Shown in pieces: positions 25,955-44,914 of a stretch of DNA of 64,000 bases. The stretch lies in NCBI GenBank assembly GCA_964414295.1, contig CAYPVU010000007.1, forward strand, positions 43,492-107,491. Reading direction: 5' to 3'. Each line of letters starts with the position of its first letter. Position 1 is the first letter of the stretch. The translations under genes were made by a program, and so were the position numbers. The notes beneath the pieces are model-generated. The model was not told the DNA's origin, did no database searches, and saw nothing but the letters and a program-made list of their open reading frames with translations. Source of the stretch: an uncultured Candidatus Saccharibacteria bacterium. Lineage in GTDB: Bacteria > Patescibacteriota > Dojkabacteria > J137.

Positions 25955-25983
25955 AAATAAATTTGTTAATAAATAAAATACTG

Positions 25984-27119: not shown

Positions 27120-27330
27120 AGTGATAAGGAAATGTTATAGAAAACTTCGAACCGCTTTTAATTAGAATATTAAACGAAACTTATTCTGATTACGAGCAGG
27201 CCGGATTACCTAAGAATGGTTACACTATTCAGATGGAGCATGACATTAAAAGACTTTATCAAATTAAAATAAAAGACTTTATAAACAGTAACAAATAAGT
27301 TACAATAATCATAACTTTAAACATTGAATT

Positions 27331-27977: not shown

Positions 27978-27998
27978 GATATTTTTTATTAAGAATAT

Positions 27999-28235
27999 AT
28001 GTTCAACTTCTTTAAACCGAGATACATCGCATTTTTTAGTAAAGGTACTAATGATGAAGGCCAAAAAGTAGAAGTTGAAGTAACTCTTCCGGTTAATTCT
28101 TTCAGATTAGCAGAAGTTTTCACTGCAGATAAGTATTTTGTTGAATTATTAGCGCAACCGATAGGATGGGAAATTTCAAAAGAAACTTATATGAAGCTTC
28201 GAAAGTTCTTACATATTAAAAGTACAAGGCTATGA
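27999..28235 (+). CDS. Small hypothetical protein
   Basis: 78 aa. ATGA-type overlap with the next gene. Confidence 0.3.
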   Translation: MFNFFKPRYIAFFSKGTNDEGQKVEVEVTLPVNSFRLAEVFTADKYFVELLAQPIGWEISKETYMKLRKFLHIKSTRL

Positions 28236-29239
28236 AGATAGCTTTTTTAGGTAATTTCAGAGTAGATTATACTTCCGAAACACACTATTTAAAAACACTA
28301 CAAAGATTAGGCCATGAAGTTATTGCTATTCAAGAAGGAAGTGCAGAATTAGCAGTGAATAAAGAATCTTTTTTCAAGAATCTCGCAACTGTAGATATGT
28401 TCTTTTGGGTACATACTCACGGATGGAAAACAGAAGGACTTAGTAAAGTAATGCAGATAATTCGAACAAACAATATTCCGGTAGTTGGTTATCATTTAGA
28501 TTTATGGAAAGGTTTAAAACGAGAAAAAGACTTAGAAACCGATGATTATTGGAAATATCTAACCCACTTCTTTACCTGTGATAAATTATTCATTCCTGAT
28601 TTAGAAGAAAGAGGAATAAAGGCATATTTCTTACCTGCAGGAGTATTTCAAGATGAATGCTATTTAGGAGATTGGAAAGAATATTACAATTACGATGTTA
28701 TATTTGTAGGTTCGAAAACTTATCATCCGGAATGGCCATATAGAACGCAATTAATAAACTGGTTAGAAAAAAAATATGGAAAAAGATTTGCGCTTTTTGG
28801 AATGCAAGGTGTAAATAAAGCACAAATTAGAGGTAAGGAATTAAACAATTTATATGCTTCCGCAAAAATAGTAATTGGCGATACGCTATGTAAAGGATTT
28901 GATTATCCTTACTACCTTTCAGATAGAATTTTCGAAACAACCGGAAGAGGCGGTTTTATAATTCATCCTTATATCAAGGGGATTGAGAATTTGTTTAATT
29001 TAGGCCTTTATACTGCAGATGGGAAAGGTTTTAGAGCAGAAGGAAGAGAGCTAGTTACCTACAAGTTTAATAATTTTGATTATTTAGAATATTCGATTGA
29101 TTATTTTCTTAAACACGAGGATGAAAGGGAAATGATAAAACTAGCAGGCCATGAAAGAACTAAGAAAGATCACACCTACAAAAGCAGGATGTGGTTTATT
29201 ATAAATACTTTATTTCCTGATACAACGAACATTATATGA
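28232..29239 (+). CDS. Hypothetical protein (possibly glycosyltransferase-1/CgeB-like fold)
   Basis: The MKIAFLGNF... N-terminus resembles Rossmann-type GT1/CgeB starts. No firm motif. Confidence 0.3.
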   Translation: MKIAFLGNFRVDYTSETHYLKTLQRLGHEVIAIQEGSAELAVNKESFFKNLATVDMFFWVHTHGWKTEGLSKVMQIIRTNNIPVVGYHLDLWKGLKREKDLETDDYWKYLTHFFTCDKLFIPDLEERGIKAYFLPAGVFQDECYLGDWKEYYNYDVIFVGSKTYHPEWPYRTQLINWLEKKYGKRFALFGMQGVNKAQIRGKELNNLYASAKIVIGDTLCKGFDYPYYLSDRIFETTGRGGFIIHPYIKGIENLFNLGLYTADGKGFRAEGRELVTYKFNNFDYLEYSIDYFLKHEDEREMIKLAGHERTKKDHTYKSRMWFIINTLFPDTTNII

Positions 29240-29489
29240 AAATTGAAACGATTAAAGTAATTGAAAAAACAATAAGTGTACTATCTACAGTATGGTCAAG
29301 TGAAGATGTTTATAAACTACCACAGCAGCAGGAGACATCTTTAGAGCTATATTTGTTTCAGAATATTTGAAGAGTAAGAATACTGAATCATCACTAAAAG
29401 TAGCTTTGGAAACTGCGACCGAGTCAACAAGGTATAAAGGTGTTAACAATACAATTACTCAACTATTCCATCGAACTAAGAAATAACTT

Positions 29490-32400
29490 ATGGGAAAGTT
29501 AACCGAACATACTACTTCTGTATGGAATGAATCAAAAATAAAGGAAAGCAATGCTGGCTTAAAGGCGAAGTTTATTGCTTATCTGAAGCCCGATAAACTG
29601 GGCTGGAATATTTGGATAGTCAATGCCTTGATATTTGCCGTTATATTTTTCCTTACACACATTTTTCTATTCTTTCCATCACTCAAACCTTGTTCAATTT
29701 CTCCTTTTGAGGAAACAAATCACCTACAAAATCTGTTTACTCTACACGCAGCGGTGACTGCATTGATATTTCCAATGGTGTTTTTCATTGCCGAGAAGTT
29801 AAGGTCTACTGATAAGGATGAAGGACGTGTATTAATTCGAGAAAGCTCATTCTGGCATATTATCTTTTTTGGAACTGCACTATTTTTAAATTTAGTCATT
29901 GCTGGTGATGACATATGGCGAGTTGCTGCATACTTAGTGCATTTTCTATATATACTTCTGGTTCTTAATTCGATACGTTCGATAATAAACATACTCCTAA
30001 ATCCACTGGAAATGGATAAGCGCACTCAGCAACTCTATACCCAAAGGATGAATAGGTACAACAATGAACTTATATCATTGAGAATCGCTAACAATAATTT
30101 TGCAGGATACTTAAAACAAAATCCCTATACTGATTTCTCTTTTTTTAATGAGGATAAAGAGATTGTGTTTAAGTCCGAGAAATTTGGCACTATAACCGAT
30201 ATAAATATTAAAGCACTACACAAACTTATTAACAGGGTTATAAAACTATCTGCGCAAAAAGAAAAGTTATCTGATAGCAGTGCCGAATCTGAGACTCCAA
30301 AACCCGTTGAAGAGAAGCCAGCAAAACCTGAAATAAAGGTCAGTAGATTAATTGGTCATAAAGTAACGCAAGAGCATTCTAATCTGCTTACCATTAGGGG
30401 CATTAGCAATCAAGATGAGAAAGAAGTTAAGCAGCTTGTTCAGCAAGTATTTATTATCAATGAAACTAAGTCTTTTGATGAAGAGCTGGAAGTAGAGCTA
30501 GGTGCAATTAGAGATGATTTAATACAAAGTATTCGTTCTAATAGCCAATCAAAGATAAAAACAAAGCTTGACCAGATTGAGAAAGTTACATCGAGCTTTC
30601 TTAAAGCTCTTAACGCCATTAATTCTAATTACAGTGCGGAAGACGCAAACCAAGAACGAGGTAATTTGATTGAAAGATGGAACCAAATAGAATTTGTAAC
30701 AGATATTCTAGATGATGCTTTGCAAGAAAGTCTTTCTACAAATAACCAAAAGATTGTAAAAGAAATTATATATTTCCCTTTTAGGCTATCCCGTCTAGCC
30801 ATTAAATATAATGACCATTTGATATTTCAAACCTTTATTGGCTACATTGGTCGAGTCTACTTTCTAGGAAATAGCAGAGATATAGATAAGTCGGTTAAGG
30901 AATTTATCTTTGACAGGTCTTTCAGGCATCTATCTGAGTTTGCTAATTACGTTTTAGTGCCTGATGCAGAAAAGCAAGGTGGTGATGCTGACCTTTCAAA
31001 TTATTATTCATATTTCCAGTCCATAGCAAAAGTATTCGTAAACTTAATGAAGTCAGCTTACGATGCAAAAAATGAAAAACACTTTGCTAGATTTGCTACT
31101 GAGCTTAGCAAGATAGCGAAATATTTTGAAAGTCGCACATATAGGAATCACTATGATGATTCGGATACTGATATAGATTCTAAATTGAAACTTAAAAAGC
31201 ACATAGAGGAAAGCAAGCAAGATATATTTTTTGGTTTTGCATCATTTATATTGAGAGACTTCATGAGTTCCAAAGATGAAAAACTAAAGCCTTATATTCA
31301 GAAACTAGAATCGTTATTGCCTAATGATATTAAAGAATTTACAGAAATTTTTATACGGGTTCATAACTTTGATATGGGGGAAGTTTGGGGATGGGATTGG
31401 TGGCATGTTAGGGAAGACGAAGAGCATTTTTCAAAAATAGAAACACTCCCTAATCTTGAAAAGTTTTATGCTGTAAGAGGACTGGCATTAGTAGGGCACC
31501 TTGACCAAAACTACTTAGAGCGTATAGATATGCCTACAAGCAGAGACCTTTACTATTTGACAGAAGGAACGAGAGATTTATTGAATCTCTTAAATCACAT
31601 TAAGCAAAATCCAACGCAATATAGCTATCTAATAGCAGATATTACAGAAGAAAAAGTCAACAAGTTTATATCACTGCTGGATAAGGCAAAACAAAAACAA
31701 ATCGAGATTGATAAAAAAACAATAGTAGGCAGTTCATTAGATGAAGAAAAGGTTGCAGAGTTTATTAAAGATTTTAGAGATGGATATAACCGCCACACTG
31801 TACTAAGGTCAATATTCAAAGCGTATAGCAAAATTGAAGATAAGACGGATACTTACATAAAACAACCCGAAGCACGAGGAGTGAACCAAGTTGAAGATAA
31901 AGAAGCATTTATTAGGGACTGGCATGTACATTATGCAGAGTTAGGTGAACACTTTGGCAGTAACATGGCTTATTTTCAAAATCAGAAATTATTGAGTTTT
32001 GCCAAAGAAAAATCACATGCATTAACCATAGAGGAATTGCTCCAAACTGAAGAAGACCCTACTGACTTAATTGCAATACTTGCAGGTAGTAACTTATATG
32101 AGCTTAAAGAAATGTACGAAAATAATAAGTCAGTAAGACTATTCTCATCTTGGGAAGTTGCTTCCGATACAGCCGAATCCAAGTTACCAGTTCTAGGTGA
32201 ACATATTGATGGGTTTATTGAAATTAAGAACGTAAAGGTGCCAATAATTATTATTGATGGCGAAAGAGATAAACCTGAATTGATAGTAATTAAACCTTCA
32301 TCTCTGGGGAAAGCGATTCAATACAAACCGCTTGAAAGTGTTGACTCAGACAGTCTAATAGAGGGTATTTTTAGCCTTGAAATAATTGATATTGCAAAAG

Positions 32401-32573
32401 ATGAATCACTAATGAAAGAATTTCTAGAAAAGAAACCTGAATGGTTAAAGAAAGAAGCTGACCAAGAGAATTACTTGAAGCAAAAAGTCATTATCAAAAT
32501 ATTCGAAAAACTTGGTTACGAAGAATCTGGTGACGAAATAGTTTTTTTGATTGAACTTCCAAAGTTACAGTAG
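29490..32573 (+). CDS. Large (1027 aa) protein with N-terminal 4-TM membrane anchor and ~850-aa soluble domain, function unknown
   Basis: Hydrophobic helices within the first ~170 aa. The remainder is charged/helical with no recognised catalytic motifs. Confidence 0.45.
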   Translation: MGKLTEHTTSVWNESKIKESNAGLKAKFIAYLKPDKLGWNIWIVNALIFAVIFFLTHIFLFFPSLKPCSISPFEETNHLQNLFTLHAAVTALIFPMVFFIAEKLRSTDKDEGRVLIRESSFWHIIFFGTALFLNLVIAGDDIWRVAAYLVHFLYILLVLNSIRSIINILLNPLEMDKRTQQLYTQRMNRYNNELISLRIANNNFAGYLKQNPYTDFSFFNEDKEIVFKSEKFGTITDINIKALHKLINRVIKLSAQKEKLSDSSAESETPKPVEEKPAKPEIKVSRLIGHKVTQEHSNLLTIRGISNQDEKEVKQLVQQVFIINETKSFDEELEVELGAIRDDLIQSIRSNSQSKIKTKLDQIEKVTSSFLKALNAINSNYSAEDANQERGNLIERWNQIEFVTDILDDALQESLSTNNQKIVKEIIYFPFRLSRLAIKYNDHLIFQTFIGYIGRVYFLGNSRDIDKSVKEFIFDRSFRHLSEFANYVLVPDAEKQGGDADLSNYYSYFQSIAKVFVNLMKSAYDAKNEKHFARFATELSKIAKYFESRTYRNHYDDSDTDIDSKLKLKKHIEESKQDIFFGFASFILRDFMSSKDEKLKPYIQKLESLLPNDIKEFTEIFIRVHNFDMGEVWGWDWWHVREDEEHFSKIETLPNLEKFYAVRGLALVGHLDQNYLERIDMPTSRDLYYLTEGTRDLLNLLNHIKQNPTQYSYLIADITEEKVNKFISLLDKAKQKQIEIDKKTIVGSSLDEEKVAEFIKDFRDGYNRHTVLRSIFKAYSKIEDKTDTYIKQPEARGVNQVEDKEAFIRDWHVHYAELGEHFGSNMAYFQNQKLLSFAKEKSHALTIEELLQTEEDPTDLIAILAGSNLYELKEMYENNKSVRLFSSWEVASDTAESKLPVLGEHIDGFIEIKNVKVPIIIIDGERDKPELIVIKPSSLGKAIQYKPLESVDSDSLIEGIFSLEIIDIAKDESLMKEFLEKKPEWLKKEADQENYLKQKVIIKIFEKLGYEESGDEIVFLIELPKLQ

Positions 32574-32682
32574 CAATCTCATTTATAATTCTCATCAAAT
32601 TAAGTATAATTAACTCATAAGTTTTAGGAAGACCTAAACTCAGTGCTTGCATTGGGCATGGTTGAACTAAAATATACAAAAT

Positions 32683-32812
32683 CCACAACGACGATAATAG
32701 CGGCTTCCTAGCCAGCACTTCGTCGTTGTGGTCGAGAACTCCGAAAGGGTCTCGGGTACGTACGAAAGGAGGTATCGCTGGTGTGGGAAGCCACTTTTGC
32801 TTCCTGCTAACT
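32683..32812. other. GC-rich structured element (candidate ncRNA / structured leader)
   Basis: Perfect 11-bp inverted repeat ccacaacgacg(32683-32693)/cgtcgttgtgg(32721-32731), plus further hairpins (ccga-aagggtc-tcgg; ggaagc-cactttt-gcttcc). Local GC is far above the AT-rich background. Confidence 0.3.
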
Positions 32813-32853
32813 TTCCATATCAGCACTACATTATTTTAGTTATATTTACTGAT

Positions 32854-33810
32854 ATGAATGGTGACAACGACACTATTTCAAGGATTAAGCGTTTTCTAGG
32901 TGACAAAAGGAAATTAATGTTTACTTTGCCTCTAGGATGTTTAATATTACTTTGTTTCTGCTGTTTCTCAATCTTCTTACTAGGTTACTTCCTCCCGCCG
33001 ACACTTAAACTTGCTGCTGACGATAACGGTAAAGCTGTATTAGAGCCGAACTATACAATCTCACTTGAATGCTCTGGCATTACCCAACTCAAATTGAACG
33101 ACAAAGAACTATCTACGCAAGAACGAGATGCAATTTGTAGCAAGACTGGCTATAAAGCCGATTTAGTAAATGGTGATAATGCTTTTAACCTTGAAGGTAG
33201 TGATTTGAAAGGTCAGAAGGTAGAGTTAGCTTTTACAATCAAGTATGACGAAGCCGAACATGAAAGAATCCTTGCGCAGCAAGAACAAGATAGACTTGCT
33301 GAAGCTGAAAGACAAAAACAGCTCGAAGAGGAAAATAAGCGAAAGCAGGAAGAGGAAGCTAAACAAAAAGCTGAACAAGACGCAAAAGCTTTGAGTGAAT
33401 GGAAAAACAAATACTACCAATATAAATCCTCAAATATCGATGTTAACTTTGCCAAGTCCAGCGAAATGATTCAGGTATTAAGTAACGGCGTTGATTCTTA
33501 TCAGAGTAGAAATCAAGCAAAGAATTATAAGCAATACTTTGTAAGCCAATGTAAAGCTACCTTAGAAAATGACCTAAAACCGATACCATCTACAGTTAGT
33601 CAAGAAATCAAAGACCTAAACACATTCTACAGCGATTTTTGCCTGTACAACAACTCGTTAGCCAGCAAAGTTGTAAGCTACTTTGAGTCTACCTCAACAC
33701 AAGACCAGTACAACAATCTAGATATGATTACCTACTACATGGGCGAGGTTAACAATGCAAAACTCAATATGGAAGGCAAGATGTCAGCTATTGATTCTAA
33801 GTTAAAGTAA
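32854..33810 (+). CDS. Membrane-anchored coiled-coil protein
   Basis: The ORF track starts at 32728 but the first 42 codons cover the GC-rich structured element. The internal Met at 32854 precedes a TM helix (LGCLILLCFCCFSIFLLGYF) and a KQ/E-rich coiled coil. Confidence 0.4.
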   Translation: MNGDNDTISRIKRFLGDKRKLMFTLPLGCLILLCFCCFSIFLLGYFLPPTLKLAADDNGKAVLEPNYTISLECSGITQLKLNDKELSTQERDAICSKTGYKADLVNGDNAFNLEGSDLKGQKVELAFTIKYDEAEHERILAQQEQDRLAEAERQKQLEEENKRKQEEEAKQKAEQDAKALSEWKNKYYQYKSSNIDVNFAKSSEMIQVLSNGVDSYQSRNQAKNYKQYFVSQCKATLENDLKPIPSTVSQEIKDLNTFYSDFCLYNNSLASKVVSYFESTSTQDQYNNLDMITYYMGEVNNAKLNMEGKMSAIDSKLK

Positions 33811-33829
33811 GTTTTAATTAACAACAAAT

Positions 33830-34057
33830 ATGGATAAAAAATATGAAGTCAAAACAATAAAGTACAACAACGAGAGAGCAATGACGCAAGGCAAGAAGAA
33901 TATGATTAGCAAAGGTTGGGAGGTGGTAGAAACTGTAACAATAAATGGGAGATATGGCTGTTTCAATACAGCCTGTTTGGGTTGCTTATTCCTACCATTG
34001 GCACTGCTGGGTAAATCTAGTGATAGCTATCAGGTGACGTATAGAAAAGTGAAATAA
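33830..34057 (+). CDS. Small hypothetical protein
   Basis: 75 aa. Confidence 0.25.
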   Translation: MDKKYEVKTIKYNNERAMTQGKKNMISKGWEVVETVTINGRYGCFNTACLGCLFLPLALLGKSSDSYQVTYRKVK

Positions 34058-34119
34058 ACAAAGTACAAAATAGTTTACTTTGGAAGTATAATTGGTTAGA
34101 TATTTCTTACTTATTAAAT

Positions 34120-34596
34120 ATGAGTGCAGATAATCTGCTATCAGAAGGTTTGCAAAAAGGTTTTGGTGGTTCAACAAACATTGAAAAAACTTCCAGAGGT
34201 AGCTTTCAACTCACTTCAAGTCATTATGAAGGAGGTAGCGGAGTTTATCACGATGAATGGGTGACTGGCGGCGGACAAGAACTTGTAAGAACACAAGATG
34301 GTGAATCAATGACTAGAACTTATGTTGGTAATGTTATTGCGCCTGAAAAATTGGAAGAATTGGGTATAACAGAAAAAGATGTAATGACTGTACTTAAAAG
34401 AGTAATAACTGAACATGGTGACCAGATTAGATTAGGAGATGATTTCGAAATAACATTGGACGACTGGCTGTACACTTATAAAGTAACTTACAGGCGTGAA
34501 GACCCTTATATTATTAACGGAATTGAAGAAATCCTTTATAAAGACCAGTCAGTTTTTGTTCATACTTTTGGAATTAGCAAGGTAGTCGAAAGCTAA
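34120..34596 (+). CDS. Hypothetical protein
   Basis: 158 aa. Confidence 0.3.
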   Translation: MSADNLLSEGLQKGFGGSTNIEKTSRGSFQLTSSHYEGGSGVYHDEWVTGGGQELVRTQDGESMTRTYVGNVIAPEKLEELGITEKDVMTVLKRVITEHGDQIRLGDDFEITLDDWLYTYKVTYRREDPYIINGIEEILYKDQSVFVHTFGISKVVES

Positions 34597-34619
34597 TCTT
34601 ATTCATTATTAGTTAGCTC

Positions 34620-34988
34620 ATGTACCATGCAATCATAATTAACAAACAGTTTGTAGACAGCAATTATCCTAACACAAAAGATGTATTTGCGAAGAAAGTT
34701 GATGGAGATTGGGAGATTTTTGGAGTAAAAGTGGAAGATAGTGAACTGGATGACTTTATTGCAGAAGTCCAACAAAATATGAGGCCAAATCAAACTTGGT
34801 ATGCGCATGCCTACAACGATACTGAAATGCTTGTTATCTTCAAAGATAAAGTAATCAAAGTCACTCCTCACCAGTCAACTTGGACTCCAATCTTTGAGTA
34901 TGGGAAATCACTTGGTATTCCTGAAAAGCAATTAGATTTCTGGCCAAATAGATTTCAGGATGAGAAGCATTATTTTGAGGAGAAGTAG
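34620..34988 (+). CDS. Hypothetical protein
   Basis: 122 aa. Confidence 0.3.
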   Translation: MYHAIIINKQFVDSNYPNTKDVFAKKVDGDWEIFGVKVEDSELDDFIAEVQQNMRPNQTWYAHAYNDTEMLVIFKDKVIKVTPHQSTWTPIFEYGKSLGIPEKQLDFWPNRFQDEKHYFEEK

Positions 34989-35340
34989 TGAAGCGGGGTG
35001 GAGGGTAAATCTTAAATCTGAACATTCACTACAGAAAGTAGTTGAACTCCTTGCTGTATAAAAGATTCAGGGTATTTGATAATATTAACCCAGTTGGAAG
35101 TTCGAAAATCGTCCCAAGCTTCCCGCCATTTTGCTTCGGTTGCTACAAGACCCGTCTACCTCCCTCTATGTCCTTTAATGGTGTTGTAGATTGGTGATCC
35201 AGAATCGCTAGATTTGCAAAAAGCACTTTTTTACCTCAAAAGTCCTCTAAATCTAAATTTATGAAAGCCATTTGGTTCTAAGGTTTTTTGTTGTGTGTGT
35301 TGAGTTTATACAGTTGATATTTTCGGTTCGAATCTTGTCC

Positions 35341-36174
35341 TTATGATTGAATATTTGGAAATAATTTCTCATATTCATCTGTTGTCATAATATCGTTTAA
35401 AAACTGTTCGAGTTTGATCGTTCTCTTAACCTCTACTAGTCCTTCAGATAAACTTTTGTCTATATCTATACTTTGAAGATCATGATTCAATGTAGTCATA
35501 AAGATAGATACTAGGGCTACATCTTCCTTACTTGATATGTCCTTTAGATTTGAACTAGAAGAAAAAATGAAAAAAGTATCAAACTGCCTAATTCTTAATT
35601 GTGAGATTACTAGATCATGCTCATTAACTACTCCCACTTGAGCATTCAAGCTAGATACATATTGCCAAACATCACCAGGTACATCAATAGCCTGGCAAAC
35701 AAAAATATAACTATTATTTACCACAGGATCCCCATCTTTAATCGACTGTAAAATATCTTTGTCTATTTCAATATGTTTAGGTAAACTTGGGATCGCATCT
35801 CTTACAAGATTTAAGTGTGTCTTTAACAACCACCCAAGTGTTTTATTATTGAATGTTAATTTTAATGCCTGACCATCTTCACTATTCAATATTTCGTTGG
35901 CTAGTGTGCAACCTGCATCATCGAAACCATTAATACTTAATTTTGTATTGCAATCTTGGCAAACATCCTTAATAACACCCTCAAAGTTTTTTAACATCTT
36001 CCACTCACCACCCTTTTTGCCATGATGCATATTTTCGATTTTAGGTCCATATAAAACTTTTAGAACAGATGCTGAAACTAAATGTTCGGATGATAAATTT
36101 GAAGTCTTACCACAATAAATACATTTTTTAGCCATTTTTATAAAATTAGTGGGTAAATTAGTGTGAGAATACAC
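35341..36174 (-). CDS. HNH-endonuclease-like protein (N-terminal CxxC...EHLV motif) with unknown C-terminal domain
   Basis: CIYCGKTSNLSSEHLVSASVL resembles the HNH core (CxxC .. EH(I/V)xP). Last gene of the six-gene minus-strand operon. Confidence 0.4.
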   Translation of the reverse strand: MYSHTNLPTNFIKMAKKCIYCGKTSNLSSEHLVSASVLKVLYGPKIENMHHGKKGGEWKMLKNFEGVIKDVCQDCNTKLSINGFDDAGCTLANEILNSEDGQALKLTFNNKTLGWLLKTHLNLVRDAIPSLPKHIEIDKDILQSIKDGDPVVNNSYIFVCQAIDVPGDVWQYVSSLNAQVGVVNEHDLVISQLRIRQFDTFFIFSSSSNLKDISSKEDVALVSIFMTTLNHDLQSIDIDKSLSEGLVEVKRTIKLEQFLNDIMTTDEYEKLFPNIQS

Positions 36175-36206: not shown

Positions 36207-37550
36207 TCAGATAAAACTTAAACTTCTATTTATTAACTTAAATTTGGAATTAACACCCCCCAGTATTTTCAATCTTTCTTCTGGAGTACCGAATTGAAGT
36301 ATATGAAGTAAATATGATTGGAGCATCTGAGACTCAGATTCAGATAGATCTGACTGGTTTACATTACCATTTCTATGAGGAGTTAAGTTAATTGTCTCTT
36401 CACCTTGTTTATATATAATCCCTTTCAAATGATTTAGTCTTTTGACCTCTTCTTCAAACTCTTGCCATAAATATTTAATATTTAGCTTTAATTCAGGAAG
36501 CAGAACTATTAATTGTTTGATCAATTCTTCTTCAGTAATATATGGTTCCTTACAATCATAATCTTTAATTCTATTGCAGTGGTAATAGATGTGAGTATTA
36601 ATAACTCCTTTTTTTGTTCTTCTGTATTTAACTTCTGCTGTAACACTTCCACCACATCTCCCACATTTGCATATCTTTTTAAACGGGAATACTTGTTTAT
36701 TCCATTGTCTGGGAACAACTTCAAGTTGAATCTGAACCTTATCAAAAATATATTTGGAGATCAAGGGTTCATGAATTCCTTTATACCATTTCTTACCGTA
36801 TTGAAATTCTCCATAATAAAAAGGATTACTGAGAGCAACATAAATTCTACCTAAGCTTAATTTGTAACCTTTTTTTGTTTGAAAGTTTTGTTTGTCTAGC
36901 CACTTTTTAACCATTCTTCCTGAATATCCTTGGTTGGCAACTTTATAAAACATTTCTTTAATTACATGAGCTCGTTCTGGATCTAAATCAACTGAAGCTA
37001 TCCTATTTCCTTTCATTGTATTTAAGTAGCCAATTGGAGCCATTCCAGGCCGAATTCCGATACCACATTTATTCCTCAAGCCTCGCTTAACATTGATTCC
37101 TCTATTATCATTTTCAAGTTTTGCCTGAGAACACAGAATCATCAATAAGAACTTTTCATTTGGATTATTGCTGAAAGTTTGAGAATGAGTTTTAATAAAA
37201 AGTAACTTTCCTTGATCCATTAGATCTACAACTCGACCTAAATCTCCTGCATTTCTAGAAATTCTGTCTGGAGCCCAGGTGACTATAGCGTTATATTTCC
37301 CTTTAGAAATATTCTCAAGCATGTAATTGAATTGAGGTCTTTGACCAGTTTCTTTTGCAGAATGGCTTTCTGTAATTACTTCATGAATTTCAATCTTTTC
37401 TCTCTTTGCCAATTCCTTCATTTCCATTAATTGGCCATCAATACTCATTGCTTGTTTTTCATCTGATTCTGAGGATTTTCTGGCATAAAGGCAGTATTGT
37501 ATTTCTTGGTCTGTAGTTTTCATTACCAAGGACAGTACCGCCAACCTCAT
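36207..37550 (-). CDS. Large serine recombinase (second copy, different sequence from 21566..23296)
   Basis: YCLYARKSSESDEKQAMSIDGQ catalytic serine motif, recombinase domain, and a CxxC..C..C zinc ribbon (CKCGRCGGS). Confidence 0.85.
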   Translation of the reverse strand: MRLAVLSLVMKTTDQEIQYCLYARKSSESDEKQAMSIDGQLMEMKELAKREKIEIHEVITESHSAKETGQRPQFNYMLENISKGKYNAIVTWAPDRISRNAGDLGRVVDLMDQGKLLFIKTHSQTFSNNPNEKFLLMILCSQAKLENDNRGINVKRGLRNKCGIGIRPGMAPIGYLNTMKGNRIASVDLDPERAHVIKEMFYKVANQGYSGRMVKKWLDKQNFQTKKGYKLSLGRIYVALSNPFYYGEFQYGKKWYKGIHEPLISKYIFDKVQIQLEVVPRQWNKQVFPFKKICKCGRCGGSVTAEVKYRRTKKGVINTHIYYHCNRIKDYDCKEPYITEEELIKQLIVLLPELKLNIKYLWQEFEEEVKRLNHLKGIIYKQGEETINLTPHRNGNVNQSDLSESESQMLQSYLLHILQFGTPEERLKILGGVNSKFKLINRSLSFI

Positions 37551-37565: not shown

Positions 37566-39110
37566 TTACCACCACCTTGGATCATCTCCATCCCAATAAG
37601 AAGGCCTGCTTCCATACCAACTTTGTCCCCCACCTCTGAGTAAAGCTGCTGCTTCTCCAGTAATGACTTGAACTCCAGGTCTGTCTTTTTCTGCAACTTT
37701 TAGTAATACCATAGTAAATGCATCGACCAAATCATCATGTTTTTCTACACCAAAATATATAAGTTGCTGTATTAAATCTTCAGCTCCATTTCTCGGAAAT
37801 AGAACTTGACCTAATCGAATAAATGGAGTGACAGAATTTAATCTTGATCTTTTATCTTGTCCATGAACTTTAAACCCTTTTGCATTCAGTCCTTTATTTT
37901 TTAATTGCTGAATTACCGATGCTTGATATCCTACCTCTTCAATATATACTTCAGGTCTTCTGCCATAATGTTGCTCACGGCCTTTTTCTTTCAATACCTC
38001 AATTGTTGTTGGAAACTCAACTCTTTTATTAAATGGATGCGGTAAAATGTAAACCTTCAATTTTTCAAGGTTCCCAAATACATGTGCCGTTACCATAGCA
38101 CTGTAGTCTGCAGAATCATTCATAGAAATAGCTAGATCAACTCCGATAATTGTATACTCGTAATCTTTAGTATTTTCAGGCAAGGTGTCATAATATTGTA
38201 TCCATTCTCGATAAACTAGCTGATCATCTTCAGGAATAATTTTAAGCATGTATTCTCTTTGCCATGCTTTATCATCTCCTATGATGTTTTTAAAATCATT
38301 AATGGCATCCATATCCTTAAATTTACTTAGCCAAAGTATGTTATTGTTGCTATCTACAATTGGATATTCTCGAAATATTGCATTCATATTTTCTTCAGTA
38401 ATTTTCTTCTTTAATCTCATAAGAAGAGAATCTTCGTGCAAAAGATTTCCAATCATTATTATTTTTGTAGTTTGATCACCAAGAGGAATAACTTCACCAG
38501 TTAACCATGAATATGTTTTATCTCTGCTTTCTTTTGTTTTAATAGTAGCTAGATCTTCAACATCATCACAGATTATTAAATCAGGTCTATGAGCTCCATG
38601 TCTAATACCTCGAATACTTTGCTCACTAGAAGCTGCAATAATTCTTGCATTAAATTTTGGAAGAACCAATGAGTATGAACCCCATTCATCAGATTCTTCT
38701 TCTAAAGCTCCTAAATCATTTCTTAAAACTTCATTACTTTCTAGCTCACGTTTTAAATTGGCAAAGTGAGTTCTAACTTGTTGTTGAGTTTGAGAAATTA
38801 TTACAACACATTTCTTTTGTTGCTTACCTAAAATTGCCCATAGAGGGTATGACATTGTCATGATTGTTGATTTAGCAGATCCTCTAAATGCAATGATTAC
38901 TGCCATCTTTATTTCATCATCTTCAGTTATTTTGAACATTTCTCTTTGAAAATCAGCTGTAGGGTAAGCAACATACTCACTAAAATATAGATGAAAAAAC
39001 CAATAATGACTTTCTCTTGTCAATTCTTTTCTAGCTCTTTTATCAACTAGAATCTTTTCAATTATTTCCATAGGCATCTCGAAATCTTTATTAATTTGTT
39101 TCTTGTTCAT
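37566..39110 (-). CDS. terL: Phage-type terminase large subunit (ATPase + RNaseH-like nuclease)
   Basis: Walker A AFRGSAKST, Walker B LIICDDVED, and C-terminal nuclease acidic residues (GVDLAISMNDSADYSAMV, KHDDLVDAFTM). Confidence 0.8.
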   Translation of the reverse strand: MNKKQINKDFEMPMEIIEKILVDKRARKELTRESHYWFFHLYFSEYVAYPTADFQREMFKITEDDEIKMAVIIAFRGSAKSTIMTMSYPLWAILGKQQKKCVVIISQTQQQVRTHFANLKRELESNEVLRNDLGALEEESDEWGSYSLVLPKFNARIIAASSEQSIRGIRHGAHRPDLIICDDVEDLATIKTKESRDKTYSWLTGEVIPLGDQTTKIIMIGNLLHEDSLLMRLKKKITEENMNAIFREYPIVDSNNNILWLSKFKDMDAINDFKNIIGDDKAWQREYMLKIIPEDDQLVYREWIQYYDTLPENTKDYEYTIIGVDLAISMNDSADYSAMVTAHVFGNLEKLKVYILPHPFNKRVEFPTTIEVLKEKGREQHYGRRPEVYIEEVGYQASVIQQLKNKGLNAKGFKVHGQDKRSRLNSVTPFIRLGQVLFPRNGAEDLIQQLIYFGVEKHDDLVDAFTMVLLKVAEKDRPGVQVITGEAAALLRGGGQSWYGSRPSYWDGDDPRWW

Positions 39111-39492
39111 CTTCTGAATTATTAACAGATAAATTAAACGCCATGCTCAACGATTTTCTAATCGTTTCTTTTTGTTCTTCAGTTAGCGGAAGATCAGCAC
39201 TTTTAGTAGTAACTTCTAACTTTGGAGAGTATTGCTTATGGTGATTTTTAAGCCAGAATATGATCCCTGTCATATTTCCATTTTTAATTGATGTTATTAA
39301 TTGGCTCTCAGCCATATCATTAACCAACTGAGAGCCCTCATTTAAAGCAAATTCCGCTTCTTCAGCAAATTTCTGATCTCTTTTCTTCCATCTATAGAAT
39401 GTCGCTCTGCCGATTCCAATCTTTTTACAAGCAACTTCAATGACTGGAGTTTTTCTTAGTTGTTCAACTAATTCTTTCTTTTTATTTTTCAT
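39091..39492 (-). CDS. Terminase small subunit-like HTH protein
   Basis: ACKKIGIGRATFYRWKK HTH. Size 133 aa. Immediately upstream of terL and overlapping it. Confidence 0.5.
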   Translation of the reverse strand: MKNKKKELVEQLRKTPVIEVACKKIGIGRATFYRWKKRDQKFAEEAEFALNEGSQLVNDMAESQLITSIKNGNMTGIIFWLKNHHKQYSPKLEVTTKSADLPLTEEQKETIRKSLSMAFNLSVNNSEDEQETN

Positions 39493-42287
39493 GATATTTT
39501 TACTCCTTTCTTACCAGTTAATTTTTCCCAACGATTCTTAATTACTTCTGCATAAACTGGTGATTTTTCCATTAAGTAACATCTTCTTTTCATTTTTGTT
39601 GATGCGATTAGTGTTGAACCGCTTCCTCCAAATGGTTCAATTATCAAATCATCCCTTTGGGTCAGAACTTTAATGTATGGAATTAGAATTTCGAGTGGCT
39701 TAGTTCCAAAAATAATTCCTTGACCAGAACTTTTTTCATCTGAAGCTTTATATTCAATAAAGTCAGTTGGCTGAATCTTTTTTCCTTTTTCATATCCTTC
39801 CCAGTGTGGTTTACCAGCAGTTGCATAGAGAGCAGATTCGTATTCATTTTGTAGAAGCTCATCTTCTGGTTCTAAGTTCAAAGTTTCTTTATTTTCAGTT
39901 GACCCAACCATAGCAATATCATGCTTCGAAAAGAATTTATATTTAGCTGCAAATCCTTGATTCCTATTTGGGAGATGCCAAACTAACATATTCTTAACTT
40001 TCCAGTATTTTTCCATTTCATTCCAAATTGTTCTAATGTTTTTCCAATTTTCATAAACGATAATATGAAAGTTGTCCTTCGAAATTTTAGATACATTCCC
40101 CATCCATAGCTCTGTAAAGTTATCCGGGAGCTCATCTAACTGATTCTCGTGTTGATAATTAATTGACCTAGAAATTAAATATTTTAAAGGCTTAGAATTA
40201 ATCCAATCAAAAATTAATATGGAATAAAATTTCAAGAGATTAATTTGCTTTTCATTTTTTGCAAGTTTAAGTATCTGATCTCTGCCTACCTCTTCTTCTT
40301 GCCAGTTATAGTATTTGTGCATAAATTTTAGCACTTCAAGAATTTCATTTGTTGTTGGGTTACTAGTGAGCTTAATAAGAGAGTTACTATCTAGTTTCAA
40401 GATTTGATTCTGATACTCTAGACTAATTGATGATGAAACCTTAAGTATATCCATTGGAACTTTATTTGAATTAGTTTCATTTTCAAGAACCTTAGCCGAG
40501 TCAGGGATTTCTGTTAGGAGTGTGTTTAAAAATACTGATCCGGTTCTTTCGATTGAGTGCAGAAGTGCGATATTTGAATAGTGATTTAAGATTTCTACTT
40601 CGTAATTGGTGTTACTTTTTCTAGTTAACTCATGGTCTCCTAGAGTTAAAAATATATTCTCATAAAACTTTTTCTGTCCATCTATAACTTGCGATTTTAC
40701 TTTCGGCGGTTTTTCTTTTGAGAAAAGATCTTCAAGTACACTTTTCTTATTCCAGTCTTTAGCATTCTTTTCTTTAACGACAAAGATGTTGCCTGAGAAT
40801 TCCTTACTAAGCCTACCAGCTCTACCAATAAGATTCAGGAAATCTACCTTTCTAAAGTTTGACATACCGATTTTCTCACTAAGTATGAATATATTTTTTG
40901 CTGGAAGATTCACTCCTTCTAATAATGTTGAAGTACAAAAAAGATAATCCAGATGACCGTTCCTAAATAAATTCTCTAGTTGGACTCTAATTCTCTGAGG
41001 TAGATCACCAAAATGAAATCCTATTCCTTTTTTAAGGCAATTTATTAAATAATATTCTTCATGAATAGTTTCTTTTATTAGCTTTATAAGTTGATTAACC
41101 TTTTCGTCATTCTTATCCAATAGTTGCTCCGAAAATTGAATAGCATAATCTCTTGTTTTATTTTTAGAATTACAATAAATTATACTTTTCCCAGTTCCAG
41201 AAATTGAAGTTATCCATTCAAATAAGCCTTTATCGTTATTCAAATGCATAGAACTTGTTTCAAATTCTCCAATAATTTTTAATTCTTGATCCTGGAGATC
41301 AAGGAAATATTTATTTTGTGATACTGGACTTTCAATAGTATAAAAAGATTCATCAGTGCTCTTATCAAAAAGTTTCAGGTAAATCTCAGGATTAGATATG
41401 TTTGGTGATGCAAAGTATAGTTTCATAGATTTCTTTTGCGCCTGCAAAATCGCATGATAATACAAAGGACTTCTTGTATCTTTTTCTGATATGACTTTAT
41501 GTGCTTCGTCAATAAACAAATATTCAATTGAAGGATTATTTTTGTCAGATATGTATGATATTAACCTCTCAGGAGTGAAAATAAATATGTAATTATTACC
41601 CTTATTTTTTATGTATTGTGGAATTTTCGGATGAACTAGTATTTCGAAATTATTAATCTCTTTAAAATTCTCCTTAAGCTTTAAAAGATTTTGATTGATT
41701 AGTGCACGTGTTGGCACTAGAATTGCAATATTATCCTTAATTTTTTCTTCAATAATTAAATATTTTATAAATGATTCAATAATAAATGACTTTCCTAATG
41801 ATGTTGGACCAGAGAAGCTAAAATGTTGATTTTTCTTTAGTAGTTCAAATATATTGTACTGGCTATCCGTAAATACAAGTTCTGAATTAGGAACAGCTTG
41901 AATTGAGCGTTTTATAGTTTCTTCATATTGATTTTCAGTAGGAATTTGAAATTCAGCATTACTTCTTGTCTTTTCAAAAAATTTAATAGCAGGGAAATTC
42001 CCAAGTTTAACTAATATTACTTTTAAGATGTTTTCTATAATTTGAGGAGATTTATGATACTCAAAAATAAGACTAACTATTTTATATGCTAAATTTCTTG
42101 CCATTTCATTTTGTGACGAAGATAATATGTCTGCAAACCTCAATAAGTGATAGAATTCTTTTTCAGATAGACCTTCATCAATTTCAGTACTCAGTATATT
42201 CTCATAGGATATATTCACCTCAAGTTTAGTTATAATTTTCGCAAGGTAGTTATCATTAAGTGCTTTTTTTGCTAACTGTTCTATCAT
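39489..42287 (-). CDS. SF2 DExH helicase fused to a C-terminal beta-class N4/N6 DNA-methyltransferase-like domain (catalytic DPPY motif not found)
   Basis: Helicase motifs: SGPTSLGKSF (I), ILVPTRAL (Ia), FIDEAHKV (II), TSTLLEGVNLPA (V), LIGRAGRL (VI). C-terminus: LVWHLPNRNQGFAAKYKFFSKHDIAMV and GTKPLEILIPYIKVLTQRDDLIIEPFGGSGSTLIAS match the PF01555-type segment ..TQKP..DPFxGSGTT. No D/N/SPPY motif upstream (VYENW occupies that position). Confidence 0.7.
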   Translation of the reverse strand: MIEQLAKKALNDNYLAKIITKLEVNISYENILSTEIDEGLSEKEFYHLLRFADILSSSQNEMARNLAYKIVSLIFEYHKSPQIIENILKVILVKLGNFPAIKFFEKTRSNAEFQIPTENQYEETIKRSIQAVPNSELVFTDSQYNIFELLKKNQHFSFSGPTSLGKSFIIESFIKYLIIEEKIKDNIAILVPTRALINQNLLKLKENFKEINNFEILVHPKIPQYIKNKGNNYIFIFTPERLISYISDKNNPSIEYLFIDEAHKVISEKDTRSPLYYHAILQAQKKSMKLYFASPNISNPEIYLKLFDKSTDESFYTIESPVSQNKYFLDLQDQELKIIGEFETSSMHLNNDKGLFEWITSISGTGKSIIYCNSKNKTRDYAIQFSEQLLDKNDEKVNQLIKLIKETIHEEYYLINCLKKGIGFHFGDLPQRIRVQLENLFRNGHLDYLFCTSTLLEGVNLPAKNIFILSEKIGMSNFRKVDFLNLIGRAGRLSKEFSGNIFVVKEKNAKDWNKKSVLEDLFSKEKPPKVKSQVIDGQKKFYENIFLTLGDHELTRKSNTNYEVEILNHYSNIALLHSIERTGSVFLNTLLTEIPDSAKVLENETNSNKVPMDILKVSSSISLEYQNQILKLDSNSLIKLTSNPTTNEILEVLKFMHKYYNWQEEEVGRDQILKLAKNEKQINLLKFYSILIFDWINSKPLKYLISRSINYQHENQLDELPDNFTELWMGNVSKISKDNFHIIVYENWKNIRTIWNEMEKYWKVKNMLVWHLPNRNQGFAAKYKFFSKHDIAMVGSTENKETLNLEPEDELLQNEYESALYATAGKPHWEGYEKGKKIQPTDFIEYKASDEKSSGQGIIFGTKPLEILIPYIKVLTQRDDLIIEPFGGSGSTLIASTKMKRRCYLMEKSPVYAEVIKNRWEKLTGKKGVKIS

Positions 42288-42288: not shown

Positions 42289-43200
42289 TTAGGATGTTAT
42301 AGATTGAGTTATATCAGTTCTAGCTTTATCTAGTTCTGTAAAAGGTAAAATGTATAGATAAAAGCAATGGCCAGCTAAATCATGTTCACTAATCTTATTT
42401 GAAATATTTTTGAACTGACCTTCCACTTCTTTTCTTATTTTATTATTTATAGAATTTCTAAAATCATTATTTGACAATCTCTTTTCTTCGGGAGATAGCT
42501 CTATCTCATAACCTATAAATATCCCAAAAGCATCATCTACCTGGAAACTATTACTTTCTTTTGGATAAATCAAATCTTGAATGATTGAAATTTCCTCAGC
42601 TGTGAAAGATTCATTCTCTAGGTGGCTACTAATAAGGGCCTTCTCAAAATTAATCCCACTTTTTTCATCCCCTTTATTATTTACCTCATTTTTGAAATCT
42701 GATATAGATTTTAAGGCTTCACTTATGGCATTCGTAAGATCCTTTATTGTTTTGGACTCTCCAAATATGATTTGATAGTTACCATTTTCTAGTCTAAGAA
42801 AATGGATACCGTCTGAGCCATTTACATAAAATTTATTAGATGTCTTTAATTCTAGTTTAGATAATATTTTGGGAGCTTTAAGATGATTTTTTAAAAAACA
42901 ATAAAGCAAAAGCTCACCAAGTTCTCCTGTATTCATTTCCTTTATGAATCTTTCTCTAGCTCGCTTAGATAGAGTGGCCGGTTTCCCTTGTAGTTTTTCT
43001 CTTGTTTTTCCGGATAATGAAAAGTCTATTAAAGGTTCCAATAATCTTTCTTTAATAAGATCATAGTTAAATGAGTTGGCATTAATATTATGGACAAATA
43101 GACTTAGTTTAGTTTTAGGGTTTAGTGGATCTATTTCCCTACTATCTATTAAATTTACAAATGATTCTAAAAAATCATCATTCATATCTATATTTTTCAC
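42289..43200 (-). CDS. PD-(D/E)xK-like nuclease candidate (Hachiman HamA-like position)
   Basis: VNGSDGIHFLRLENGNYQIIFGESKT gives D-x18-ESK, compatible with the PD-(D/E)xK core. 303 aa. Abuts the helicase gene with a 1-nt spacer. Confidence 0.35.
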   Translation of the reverse strand: MKNIDMNDDFLESFVNLIDSREIDPLNPKTKLSLFVHNINANSFNYDLIKERLLEPLIDFSLSGKTREKLQGKPATLSKRARERFIKEMNTGELGELLLYCFLKNHLKAPKILSKLELKTSNKFYVNGSDGIHFLRLENGNYQIIFGESKTIKDLTNAISEALKSISDFKNEVNNKGDEKSGINFEKALISSHLENESFTAEEISIIQDLIYPKESNSFQVDDAFGIFIGYEIELSPEEKRLSNNDFRNSINNKIRKEVEGQFKNISNKISEHDLAGHCFYLYILPFTELDKARTDITQSITS

Positions 43201-43288: not shown

Positions 43289-44914
43289 ATGCAATATCTT
43301 CAGAATCAACAATATTATGAAGATCGTTATGACTTATTAACTATCGAGCTTTGCCTAGATAAGATTGATTTCGTAAATAAGGTTGCAAAAGATTCTCTTG
43401 ATTCTCCTGATTTCAAAAATACTCCAATCGAAGAGGTTGATAAAGGATGGCGATATGTTCTGCATGAACAGCTTTTAAATACCGAATTACACAGATATAA
43501 GAATCGAGAAACTGAAATAAACAAATCAATAGAAGAAGCCAGACTCAGACAAGATAAGTATGATAATACTCCAGCTCCATCAGTTAAATGCACTACTTGC
43601 AGAAAATTAATGGATGTAACAATGAAGTCACTTGATTGGCATGATACGGATCCAAAGAAAATGCTATTTTTCTTTGAATGCCCTTCATGTAAGAAGCGTA
43701 AACATGTTTGGGAAGATGGAAAGGAATGGATCTATGAACCCGATCTTTGTCCAAAATGTAAGTCAGAAGTTAAGCAAAGTTATAAACGAAAAGGCGATAT
43801 AGTTACTACTATAATAAAATGTACTTCATGTAGTTATAAGAATGTAGAAGTTGATGACTATAAAAAAGATGAGGAAGAAAGATTGCTGAAAAAACAAAAA
43901 GAGAAAGATTTATTAGAAAAATATAGACCAGAGTTTTGTTTATCAAAAGAGAAAGGTGATGAGTTACTGGATGGATTTGAACAGCTCAAGTTTATGAATG
44001 AAGTATATGAATATGAACTTCAAAAATACCAAGATCCAGCTTTTGAAAAAACCTTTAATGTAAAAAAGCTAACCATTATTGAACTTGAAAAGCTACTTAA
44101 TAAAAAGTTAGTTAAATATAAGTTTAAAAAATTAATTTTAGATAAACCCGAAATTACTCGATTTGTCATAGTCCCATTCTCAGTTCAAGATAATGATACA
44201 AATAGAAACAACAAAGATAGTACTAAAGAATTAGAGAAAATAATTAAAGAAACTTTAGAGATAACAAACTGGAGACTTACACCAGATGGTACTTCGTATA
44301 GATTAGGATATATATCAGGAAGGTTAAAAGGCTATGAACGAGATGAAGACCTACATGAATTATTTGGTAAAAAGAATGAAGAACCTAAAACAGAATTAGA
44401 TCCTGAGAAACTTTCAAAGTATTCAAATACTGCTGAAATAGCAAGATTATTTGCTAAGGTAGAAATAACAGATAGGTTAAGAAAGAAGAGATTAGTAAAA
44501 GAACCTGAGGGTTTCTTTTTAGAAGATCGAGAATCTGGTTATTCATGTAATCTTTGCTCTAGAGGTCTTAAAGGCAGTGAATCATGGTGGAACTTAGACG
44601 GTATTCAATGCATAGACTGCAGAAGAAATGTAAAGGAAGGAATAATTCCTGCTGAAATTATTAAGAATCATGATCTTTGGATTGCAAATTGGCAATTTAA
44701 AAGTGAATTTCGATTACATTCTGCTACAGTTAGCAAAATGAAACGAAATGGTGAACTCGTCGGTCGAGAATTAAAAGATTTAGAAGGTAAGACTTACTTT
44801 ACTGTTTACATGGTTGAAGATAATAAAAAGTTCTTTAAGAAGCATAGAAAGACTTCAAGCAATAATAGAAAATGGGAGTTTGTTGATAAGGATGGAATTG
44901 AGATATTACTTTGA
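43289..44914 (+). CDS. Zinc-ribbon-rich hypothetical protein
   Basis: At least five CxxC pairs (CTTCRK, CPSCKK, CPKCKS, CTSCSYK, CNLCSR...CIDCRR). 541 aa. Divergent from the nuclease/helicase operon. Confidence 0.4.
   Translation: MQYLQNQQYYEDRYDLLTIELCLDKIDFVNKVAKDSLDSPDFKNTPIEEVDKGWRYVLHEQLLNTELHRYKNRETEINKSIEEARLRQDKYDNTPAPSVKCTTCRKLMDVTMKSLDWHDTDPKKMLFFFECPSCKKRKHVWEDGKEWIYEPDLCPKCKSEVKQSYKRKGDIVTTIIKCTSCSYKNVEVDDYKKDEEERLLKKQKEKDLLEKYRPEFCLSKEKGDELLDGFEQLKFMNEVYEYELQKYQDPAFEKTFNVKKLTIIELEKLLNKKLVKYKFKKLILDKPEITRFVIVPFSVQDNDTNRNNKDSTKELEKIIKETLEITNWRLTPDGTSYRLGYISGRLKGYERDEDLHELFGKKNEEPKTELDPEKLSKYSNTAEIARLFAKVEITDRLRKKRLVKEPEGFFLEDRESGYSCNLCSRGLKGSESWWNLDGIQCIDCRRNVKEGIIPAEIIKNHDLWIANWQFKSEFRLHSATVSKMKRNGELVGRELKDLEGKTYFTVYMVEDNKKFFKKHRKTSSNNRKWEFVDKDGIEILL

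Follow-up and report, generated by a model that had tools for sequence, protein, structure and literature searches.

What is a complete phage terminase doing in a bacterial genome region that holds no genes for a virion? The question is raised by a stretch of 64,000 nucleotides from an uncultured Candidatus Saccharibacteria bacterium (placed by GTDB in Patescibacteriota, Dojkabacteria, J137; assembly GCA_964414295.1, contig CAYPVU010000007.1, positions 43,492 to 107,491), to which we refer, at its full length, as the window. A first-pass annotation had noticed a pair of genes for the small (TerS) and large (TerL) terminase subunits at 37566-39492, coordinates that are exactly those of a helix-turn-helix (HTH) gene plus TerL. 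What it had missed is that this pair is the invariant core of a phylum-wide family, not the oddity of one island. In the related loci that we compared, TerS and TerL form the core that is conserved throughout a whole family of mobile, integrating islands in Patescibacteria, the bacteria of the candidate phyla radiation (CPR). That the island is a phage-satellite-like element, which would bring its own complete terminase and use the capsids of a helper, has in our judgment an even chance of being right.

Identity and conservation of the terminase subunits

The two genes at the center of the question are the following:

37566..39110, minus strand: TerL, 514 aa (PHROG, Pfam, AlphaFold2 with Foldseek)
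39091..39492, minus strand: TerS-like HTH protein, 133 aa (PHROG TerS families, HTH fold, synteny)

The TerL assignment is secure. The open reading frame (ORF) is intact and matches phrog_38, "terminase large subunit" (E = 1e-80), and Pfam Terminase_6C (25.0 bits against a cut-off of 22.6). The top PDB matches that Foldseek returned for its AlphaFold2 model (pLDDT 77.5) are exclusively large terminases, over both domains, the best being those of PhiV-1 (3e-18), D6E, T4 (gp17), HK97, and T7. The ATPase domain of the model resembles those of T4 gp17 and P74-26, and the nuclease domain resembles the terminase nucleases of G20c, RB49, and human cytomegalovirus. The motifs quoted in the first-pass annotation are indeed present: Walker A is AFRGSAKST (G77-S-A-K80-S-T), Walker B is LIICDDVED (D182-D183-V-E185), and the nuclease acids are D325, D459/D460, and D463. 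Among 143 TerLs of the element type, as opposed to the phage type discussed below, K80, D182, D183, R167, D325, D460, and D463 are unchanged in all 143 and E185 in 142. The ratio of nonsynonymous to synonymous substitution rates (dN/dS) of TerL is 0.05-0.065 against the related loci L001 and L002, and TerS and TerL range over 0.04-0.07 against the two closest relatives, values for which dS is near saturation. Judged by these ratios, the terminase is apparently under strong selection.

The identity of the smaller protein is reasonable but softer than the TerL call. The last 20 nt of its gene overlap the start of TerL, in line with the overlap noted at first pass, and modest scores back its predicted identity as TerS: it matches PHROG TerS families at 7e-10, 2.5e-8, and 2e-5, and Pfam HTH_Tnp_1_2 (phBC6A51 type) at 25.9 bits, below the cut-off of 27.9. 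In its AlphaFold2 model, the N terminus folds confidently into an HTH (helices at residues 18-38, pLDDT 83-92). Foldseek gave no significant match to this model, the best being the phBC6A51 prophage protein 2AO9 (E = 0.74), and hhalign pairs the protein with a TerS-like phage family at 81% probability. Of the 143 element-type TerLs, 139 have a homologue of this protein immediately upstream. TerS is better conserved than TerL across relatives: the best 120 of its 1168 homologues are 69-95% identical to it, the best 120 TerL relatives 53-100%.

Absence of virion structural genes

Every search bore out the reported lack of portal, capsid, protease, and tail genes near the terminase. Pfam and PHROGs, applied to the 19 main ORFs (109 aa or longer) of the interval 21566-44914, returned no structural match among them. 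We also built our own hidden Markov models (HMMs) for portal, protease, capsid, and tail, based on the most closely related real phages; the window, translated in six frames over its full 64 kb, gave no match to them, nor did 80 related genome loci, each taken with 10 kb on either side. The ORFs of the island that had been thought able to hide structural genes thus yielded none. The larger unknown ORFs also make poor capsid or portal candidates when inspected: a 425-aa ORF has a P-loop, and ORFs of 1027 and 360 aa appear to be membrane proteins, their hydrophobic stretches having been read by eye. The absence of structural genes in the window holds at the sequence level.

A family of terminase islands in Patescibacteria

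In the protein database, no fewer than 3796 protein clusters hold relatives of TerL. Species-representative genomes that encode it number at least 556 and come from Saccharibacteria, Dojka-, Berkel-, Woese-, Levyi-, Peri-, and Paceibacterota, and other lineages. ORFs were called and clustered in 80 genome loci and 80 IMG/VR loci (all numbered with L), and one collinear layout, without portal or capsid, recurs in about 140 of them (80 genome, about 60 IMG/VR). It consists of a ParB_N-N6/N4 methylase, often followed by a second methylase, then TerS, TerL, 0-7 kb of cargo, and a large serine recombinase (LSR). An LSR homologue is found downstream of 103 of the 143 element-type TerLs, and many of the others end at a contig boundary. 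The elements range from about 8 to more than 15 kb, and several metagenome-assembled genomes (MAGs) or contigs carry two copies. Their cargo includes type I restriction-modification, a phospholipase D (PLD)-SNF2 helicase with an Eco57I-like methylase, copper resistance, and a pair of HTH and oligonucleotide-binding (OB)-fold proteins. A divergent LexA/S24-type (LexA/CI-like) repressor stands at the left in 26 loci; it is optional, or a Zn-ribbon gene is found instead. No replication gene is recognizable or conserved in the family, the genes upstream of the methylase having been checked: those just upstream have no Pfam match and are not one family by hhalign.

Integration seems to favor tRNA genes in many loci. 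A tRNA lies within 2.5 kb in 16 of the 38 related loci that extend at least 2.5 kb past the LSR (Ser in 11, Asp in 2, Gln in 2, Tyr in 1), and its 3' end points toward the recombinase in all 16, as it does for 22 of 22 first-downstream tRNAs and likewise for the tRNA-Ser of the window. Moreover, the motif GACC occurs 17-23 nt beyond the tRNA end at 13 of 19 element ends, against a mean of 0.84 and a maximum of 5 in 2000 control trials.

Two side observations concern members of this family. A small Xre-type HTH gene and a tRNA_anti-like OB-fold protein of about 185 aa recur just past TerL or the recombinase (L018, L020, L022, L024-L026, L031, L037, L044, L054, L064, and others). The 17,334-bp Falkowbacteria contig L015, the sole contig that looks possibly circular, has a 44-bp terminal direct repeat and carries two methylases, TerS, TerL, two LSRs, and 11 mostly unknown genes, including one for an Ntox44 toxin-domain protein. 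Pfam was uninformative on its remaining ORFs, and we do not count this contig as evidence for an excised form.

Relationship to phages of CPR bacteria

The observation of the first-pass annotation would have been undone by a TerL closest to ordinary prophage terminases with conserved structural neighborhoods. This is not the case: the roughly 140 closest relatives that we examined all lack structural neighbors, and normal phage genomes appear only in a separate clade at 37-44% TerL identity. Intact phages related in this way do infect CPR bacteria, a point that the first-pass annotation had missed. The IMG/VR loci of the clade are ordinary siphovirus-type genomes, with Sak4/RepO replication genes, a ParB-methylase, a second methylase, TerS, TerL, and a portal (+MuF), followed by protease, HK97-type capsid, tail genes, and tape measure. 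In a neighbor-joining tree of 164 TerLs, 17 portal-linked sequences and three other phage sequences form a clade without any element-type TerL. The portal family of these phages, with 574 matches against at least 3796 for TerL, includes prophages within CPR chromosomes, such as that of Campbellbacteria CP064977.1 (L174). In these temperate CPR siphophages, the late region opens with a block that shares both homology and gene order with methylase-TerS-TerL of the islands. Because portal-linked TerLs form a related clade and prophages with the same portal family reside in CPR chromosomes, it is plausible that the terminase module derives from, or shares its origin with, CPR phages, and that those phages are the candidate helpers. 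The nearest TerLs of cultured phages are Mu-like (FP_Mushu, BalMu-1, and Mannheimia 3927AP2) and only 25-27% identical over about 85-90% of the protein.

Element-type and phage-type TerLs differ at their C termini. The tail past D463 has a median length of 42 aa in the former versus 23 aa in the latter, and F, W, or Y occurs within the last three residues of 104 of the 143 element-type TerLs versus 3 of 17 phage-type ones. The element tails are long and variable, with F or W as the final residue in 63 of 143, whereas the related phage TerLs have a short tail that often ends in ...PEVxGLI. In the window, the tail is 51 aa long (tail region 37566-37718) and ends in ...DDPRWW. About ten elements carry tandem full-length TerL paralogues (L016, L042, L060, L074, L091-L094, L097, and L140); those within the 143-sequence alignment each retain all catalytic residues, and the tails differ between the two copies where inspected (L091-L094 and L097). 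We infer that the tail pattern and the paralogue tails fit an adaptation to foreign portals.

Comparison with known satellites and prophages

The islands share several traits with phage-inducible chromosomal islands (PICIs; for the satellite families, PMC10085698), including the Staphylococcus aureus pathogenicity islands (SaPIs): they are small and site specific, carry accessory or defense cargo and TerS, the subunit by which PICIs redirect packaging to their own DNA, encode no virion genes, and often have a phage-type repressor. PICIs use the TerL of their helper and have their own primase/replicase module and tyrosine integrase. By contrast, the island encodes TerL and a ParB-methylase, ends in a large serine recombinase, has no recognizable replication module, and resides in CPR hosts; it resembles a PICI in being a site-specific island with an integrase at one end, the enzyme being of the serine instead of the tyrosine type. 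Described PICI satellites encode TerS only. Capsid-forming PICIs (cf-PICIs), according to the preprint that describes them (bioRxiv 10.1101/2022.09.08.507074), encode every protein required for small capsids of their own and depend on the helper for tails alone. They are like the island in encoding both TerS and TerL and unlike it in their capsid genes, of which Pfam, PHROG, and our HMMs found none here. The remark that TerS plus TerL without a capsid module is unusual is true against described satellites, which have either TerS alone or TerS and TerL with capsid genes.

Siphophages and prophages of Patescibacteria (such as L153 and L174) have a homologous methylase and TerL, the methylase-TerS-TerL order, and the host phylum in common with the island. 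They differ by their replication genes, head-tail module, and separate clade of short-tailed TerLs, whereas in the island TerL is followed by cargo and the LSR. The Mu-like phage TerLs have the same two-domain arrangement of ATPase and nuclease but are very distant and adjoin portal and head genes. Nor is the window locus an intact Caudoviricetes prophage, as portal, HK97-fold capsid, and tail are all missing from the window. Another point of comparison is provided by phiRv1 and phiRv2 of Mycobacterium tuberculosis, LSR-mobilized elements of about 10 kb with a partial phage late region that includes the terminase. These elements also retain capsid, prohead protease, and primase, and they integrate into a repeated element, not a tRNA. 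We considered the Pseudomonas helper-satellite pair AH14a/AH14b as a precedent and rejected it, as AH14b encodes no terminase.

In the openly searchable full-text literature, we found no description of a capsid-less TerS-TerL island from CPR bacteria; in one paper on Patescibacteria defense, a terminase appears only as a T4 escape locus. A 2025 preprint (10.1101/2025.02.15.638363) states that viruses of CPR or DPANN hosts are not known either to have or to lack satellites. Very few CPR phages have been characterized and few CPR defense systems identified (PMC12366544).

Possible roles of the terminase

The first-pass annotation had offered two roles, hijacking of the packaging specificity of a helper phage and a function outside packaging. 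The helper-hijack reading emerges as the best-supported one, on circumstantial evidence; the non-packaging role is rated lower. During growth of a related CPR phage, or upon SOS-type derepression, TerS would bind a pac site on the island DNA. TerL would then cut this DNA and dock on the portal of a helper procapsid, the island would be packed by headful, and helper virions would deliver it to a recipient cell, in which the serine recombinase would insert it at a tRNA 3' end. Packaging of this kind would take capsids away from the helper and, together with the defense cargo, could benefit the host.

We consider a more comprehensive version of this proposal somewhat short of even. It holds that the islands are the first satellites of CPR phages and of a new type, with TerS, TerL, and a ParB-methylase but no capsid or replication genes, and that the variable TerL tail, which in most members has an aromatic residue at its end, docks on helper portals. 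It further holds that the LSR integrates the islands, often at tRNA 3' ends, that their thousands of members have moved defense and metal-resistance cargo phylum-wide, and that cargo is thereby exchanged between ultra-small epibiotic bacteria.

Several points weigh against packaging into helper capsids. There is no conserved replication gene, so that packageable concatemers have no evident source, and the size of the elements (see above) is far under a headful of about 40 kb. Element TerLs are only about 40% identical to those of the candidate helpers and differ from them in their C-terminal tails; the proposal therefore assumes compatibility with their portals. The scores behind the TerS assignment are modest. 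Repeat and motif searches did not locate the left end of the element or attL, and the meaning of the only hint of a circular form, the terminal repeat of L015, is ambiguous. Finally, the window copy has lost the catalytic motif of the methylase and the usual regulators and may no longer be mobile.

Among the alternatives, an interference-only defense system survives best, even if we hold it to be unlikely. TerS and TerL would sabotage infecting phages by portal occupation, cutting, or mis-packaging, and the methylase would mark self DNA; the island would not enter virions but spread by other routes and be retained within a defense island. The defense genes of the family agree with this: Hachiman in the window, Shango-like genes in sister strains, and type I restriction-modification and PLD-helicase/methylase elsewhere. 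A methylase beside an ATP-dependent nuclease also recalls the logic of restriction-modification, and small size with no replication genes speaks against efficient packaging. Yet PADLOC models match neither TerS nor TerL, and the full phage gene order and the complete set of motor residues, including those for ATPase coupling, exceed what a nuclease effector needs. The constant link to an integrase, and to a tRNA 3' end where one is near, marks a self-mobile element. Moreover, interference and transfer are coupled in known satellites.

Non-packaging DNA processing is quite improbable in our estimate. Here, the terminase would act as a site-specific, ATP-dependent nuclease or translocase in replication, excision, resolution, or the release of linear DNA, to be taken up, for instance, by naturally competent CPR cells. 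The absence of capsid genes nearby, as seen with our HMMs, speaks for such a role, and so does the absence of a conserved replication gene, which calls for some other route of maintenance or transfer; the distinct element-type TerL tail, unseen in the phage clade, could bind a partner other than a portal. However, excision and integration are already covered by the serine recombinase, the phage order methylase-TerS-TerL is kept intact, and we know of no precedent for a TerS/TerL pair acting outside capsid packaging.

A system like a gene transfer agent, with head and tail genes elsewhere in the genome and the terminase locus as one dispersed piece, would account for the very strong conservation of the terminase over the whole phylum, but we regard it as very improbable. 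The loci bear the marks of mobile islands: they have an integrase, often with a tRNA 3' end beyond it, their cargo varies, their flanks differ, and several copies occur within one MAG or contig. Furthermore, the portal family is far smaller than that of TerL and, where examined, resides in complete prophages, and nothing structural was found in 64 kb of this ~1-Mb-class genome or within 10 kb of the 80 loci. A decayed prophage remnant without current function is as remote a prospect, and at the family level we reject it: although the block is clearly phage derived and the rearrangement of the window copy truncated its methylase, the invariant catalytic residues and a dN/dS of about 0.05 rule out a family of dead remnants, and random independent decay is disfavored by a layout that recurs with intact ORFs in many CPR lineages and by TerLs that group apart from those of phages.

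Implications

Much of bacterial diversity belongs to the CPR. Should the islands prove to be satellites, they would bring a new level of parasitism to the smallest cells known and a new way of hijacking a helper, in which the whole motor is brought along rather than the specificity subunit alone. They would then also be a main vehicle in CPR bacteria for defense genes such as Hachiman, Shango-like, restriction-modification, and PLD-helicase systems. A further consequence concerns viral surveys, in which TerL commonly serves as the hallmark of a virus. Among the 80 best IMG/VR matches, at least 57 (within L081-L143) are portal-less islands of the TerS-TerL family, apparently listed as viral on account of TerL; counts of CPR "prophages" and viruses that are based on TerL are therefore probably inflated. 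Lastly, the serine recombinases of the islands, many of them beside tRNA 3' ends, form a pool of candidate integrases whose attachment sites might be definable.

The terminase element in the window

On the minus strand, the terminase pair is part of a closely packed series of genes (HamA, the helicase/methylase ORF, the HTH gene, TerL, the recombinase LSR1, and a 277-aa ORF). Apart from the two terminase genes, the features of this locus are as follows:

43289..44914, plus strand: Zn-ribbon protein c7, 541 aa, divergent from the terminase operon (clusters c7/c15)
42289..43200, minus strand: HamA, Hachiman cargo (Pfam HamA 3e-56; PADLOC HamA 1e-107)
39489..42287, minus strand: HamB::methylase fusion ORF, 932 aa (PADLOC, Pfam, alignment to the L001 methylase)
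40143..42287, minus strand: HamB helicase part of the fusion ORF (PADLOC HamB; Pfam DEAD/ResIII/Helicase_C)
39489..40142, minus strand: methylase remnant, the C-terminal 216 aa of the fusion ORF (89% identity to the L001 methylase)
36207..37550, minus strand: large serine recombinase LSR1, 447 aa, the integrase of the terminase element (Pfam, phrog_95)
35341..36174, minus strand: 277-aa ORF between LSR1 and the tRNA end (no family except a faint HNH_5 match)
35123..35160: right, recombinase-side end of the terminase element (empty-site junctions; contains CAAGACCCGTC at 35146-35156)

LSR1 exceeds the Pfam cut-offs for Resolvase, Recombinase, and Zn_ribbon_recom, matches the phrog_95 integrase at 2e-57, and has a dN/dS of 0.07-0.11 against the two closest relatives, with dS near saturation. 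For the 277-aa ORF, Pfam, PHROG, and PADLOC give no family, barring the HNH_5 match; it is absent in L001 and L002 and present in the strain contigs L161-L163, and because it varies among relatives in this way, it is probably cargo. A scan for promoters and terminators gave fewer sites than in shuffled controls.

At least 18 related loci, from distant CPR lineages, have a c7 gene on the left side of the terminase module, usually in divergent orientation (L035, L044, L049, L051, L054, L076, L100, L118, L121, and L127 are among the loci of this type). The protein has two modules, of about 360 aa at the N terminus and about 190 aa at the C terminus, each also found as a gene of its own, and Pfam on 16 members gave zinc-ribbon matches only. 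It is uncertain whether c7 belongs to the terminase element, in which it might serve as a regulator or be the end gene.

Element B and the attachment sites

The first-pass annotation had described the terminase genes as part of a single 23-kb island. We reject this view, since the region is a composite of two tandem elements: two contigs of other samples, L161 and L163, match the window at 99.96% identity but lack 21698-35122. In these empty-site contigs, position 21697 connects to 35123 and the terminase element abuts the 3' end of tRNA-Ser. The missing segment, element B, is a separate, strain-polymorphic element outside the terminase element and inserted at the tRNA-Ser 3' end; its two junctions overlap by 3 nt, CCG, where tRNA-Ser(gct) has its outermost 3' nucleotides. 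The terminase element proper spans about 35123 to at least 43272. The features on the element B side are these:

21607..21698, plus strand: tRNA-Ser(gct) (ARAGORN)
21698..35122: element B, 13.4 kb, with its own recombinase LSR2 (missing from 99.96%-identical contigs)
21566-23296, minus strand: LSR2, second serine recombinase (ORF crosses the tRNA-Ser junction)

The tRNA-Ser 3' end is probably the attachment site of the terminase element too. A search for direct and inverted attachment repeats over 21500-45100 gave chance-level matches only, as expected because the recombinase is of the serine type, and a second, inverted copy of the right-end motif, sought at the left end, was not found. A scan of metagenomes for empty sites with a 30-nt tRNA-Ser attachment pattern had no match; a 22-nt pattern retrieved generic tRNA 3' ends of unrelated organisms, with no TerL and two serine recombinases in 120 loci. 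At about 35325-35340, beside the stop of the 277-aa ORF, we noticed a tRNA T-arm-like fragment, GGTTCGAATCTTGTCC (compare GGTTCGAATCCTGTTC of tRNA-Ser). This fragment lies about 200 nt from the element end and may be a relic attachment site.

Element B also contains a tRNA-Met (27906-27978), the 425-aa P-loop protein, a small HTH protein, a bPH_2 protein, a glycosyltransferase, and the membrane-like proteins of 1027 and 360 aa. The last ~44 codons of LSR2 are antisense to the tRNA-Ser gene. As the ORF spans the attachment junction, the C terminus of LSR2 must differ between the integrated and the excised state.

Rearrangement of the window copy

DNA homology of the window to the relatives is limited to 36224-40137 and stops, within the fusion ORF, at 40127-40137. 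Residues 716-931 of the fusion align at 89% identity with residues 226-441 of the methylase of L001, in which the DPPY motif is at about residue 195. The fusion has thus kept neither ParB_N nor DPPY; it does retain the AdoMet motif FGGSGST. Its residues 1-761 correspond to HamB (PADLOC 6e-246, model positions 3-754 of 845), without the C-terminal ~90 model positions. HamA and HamB are adjacent, as in Hachiman; whether the fused and truncated HamB would give Hachiman activity is uncertain.

Sister strains (L164 and L166) share a flank of 96.4% identity, in which homology begins at 43272 and c7 is conserved. In place of Hachiman, they carry DUF2779, a TerB_C protein, a BrxC/BrxD-like ATPase, and a helicase (Shango-like), as well as a 170-aa gene and another with 92% identity to the gene ahead of the L002 methylase; the c17 gene is among those present instead of Hachiman. 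Since these strains hold other genes at the same place, we conclude that a Hachiman cassette has displaced the regulatory genes at the left together with the N-terminal half of the methylase, leaving an in-frame HamB::methylase fusion, and the space between c7 and the methylase is a site at which defense systems are swapped. Rearranged in this way, the window copy may be impaired; its TerS, TerL, and recombinase are intact.

The identical HamB::methylase fusion was also found in three other samples. Elsewhere in the window, ARAGORN made two odd calls, a tRNA-Tyr at 50856-50941, overlapping the 3' end of the ORF at 49981-50901, and, at 58312-58396, an 85-nt "tRNA-Asp" with the anticodon ATC.

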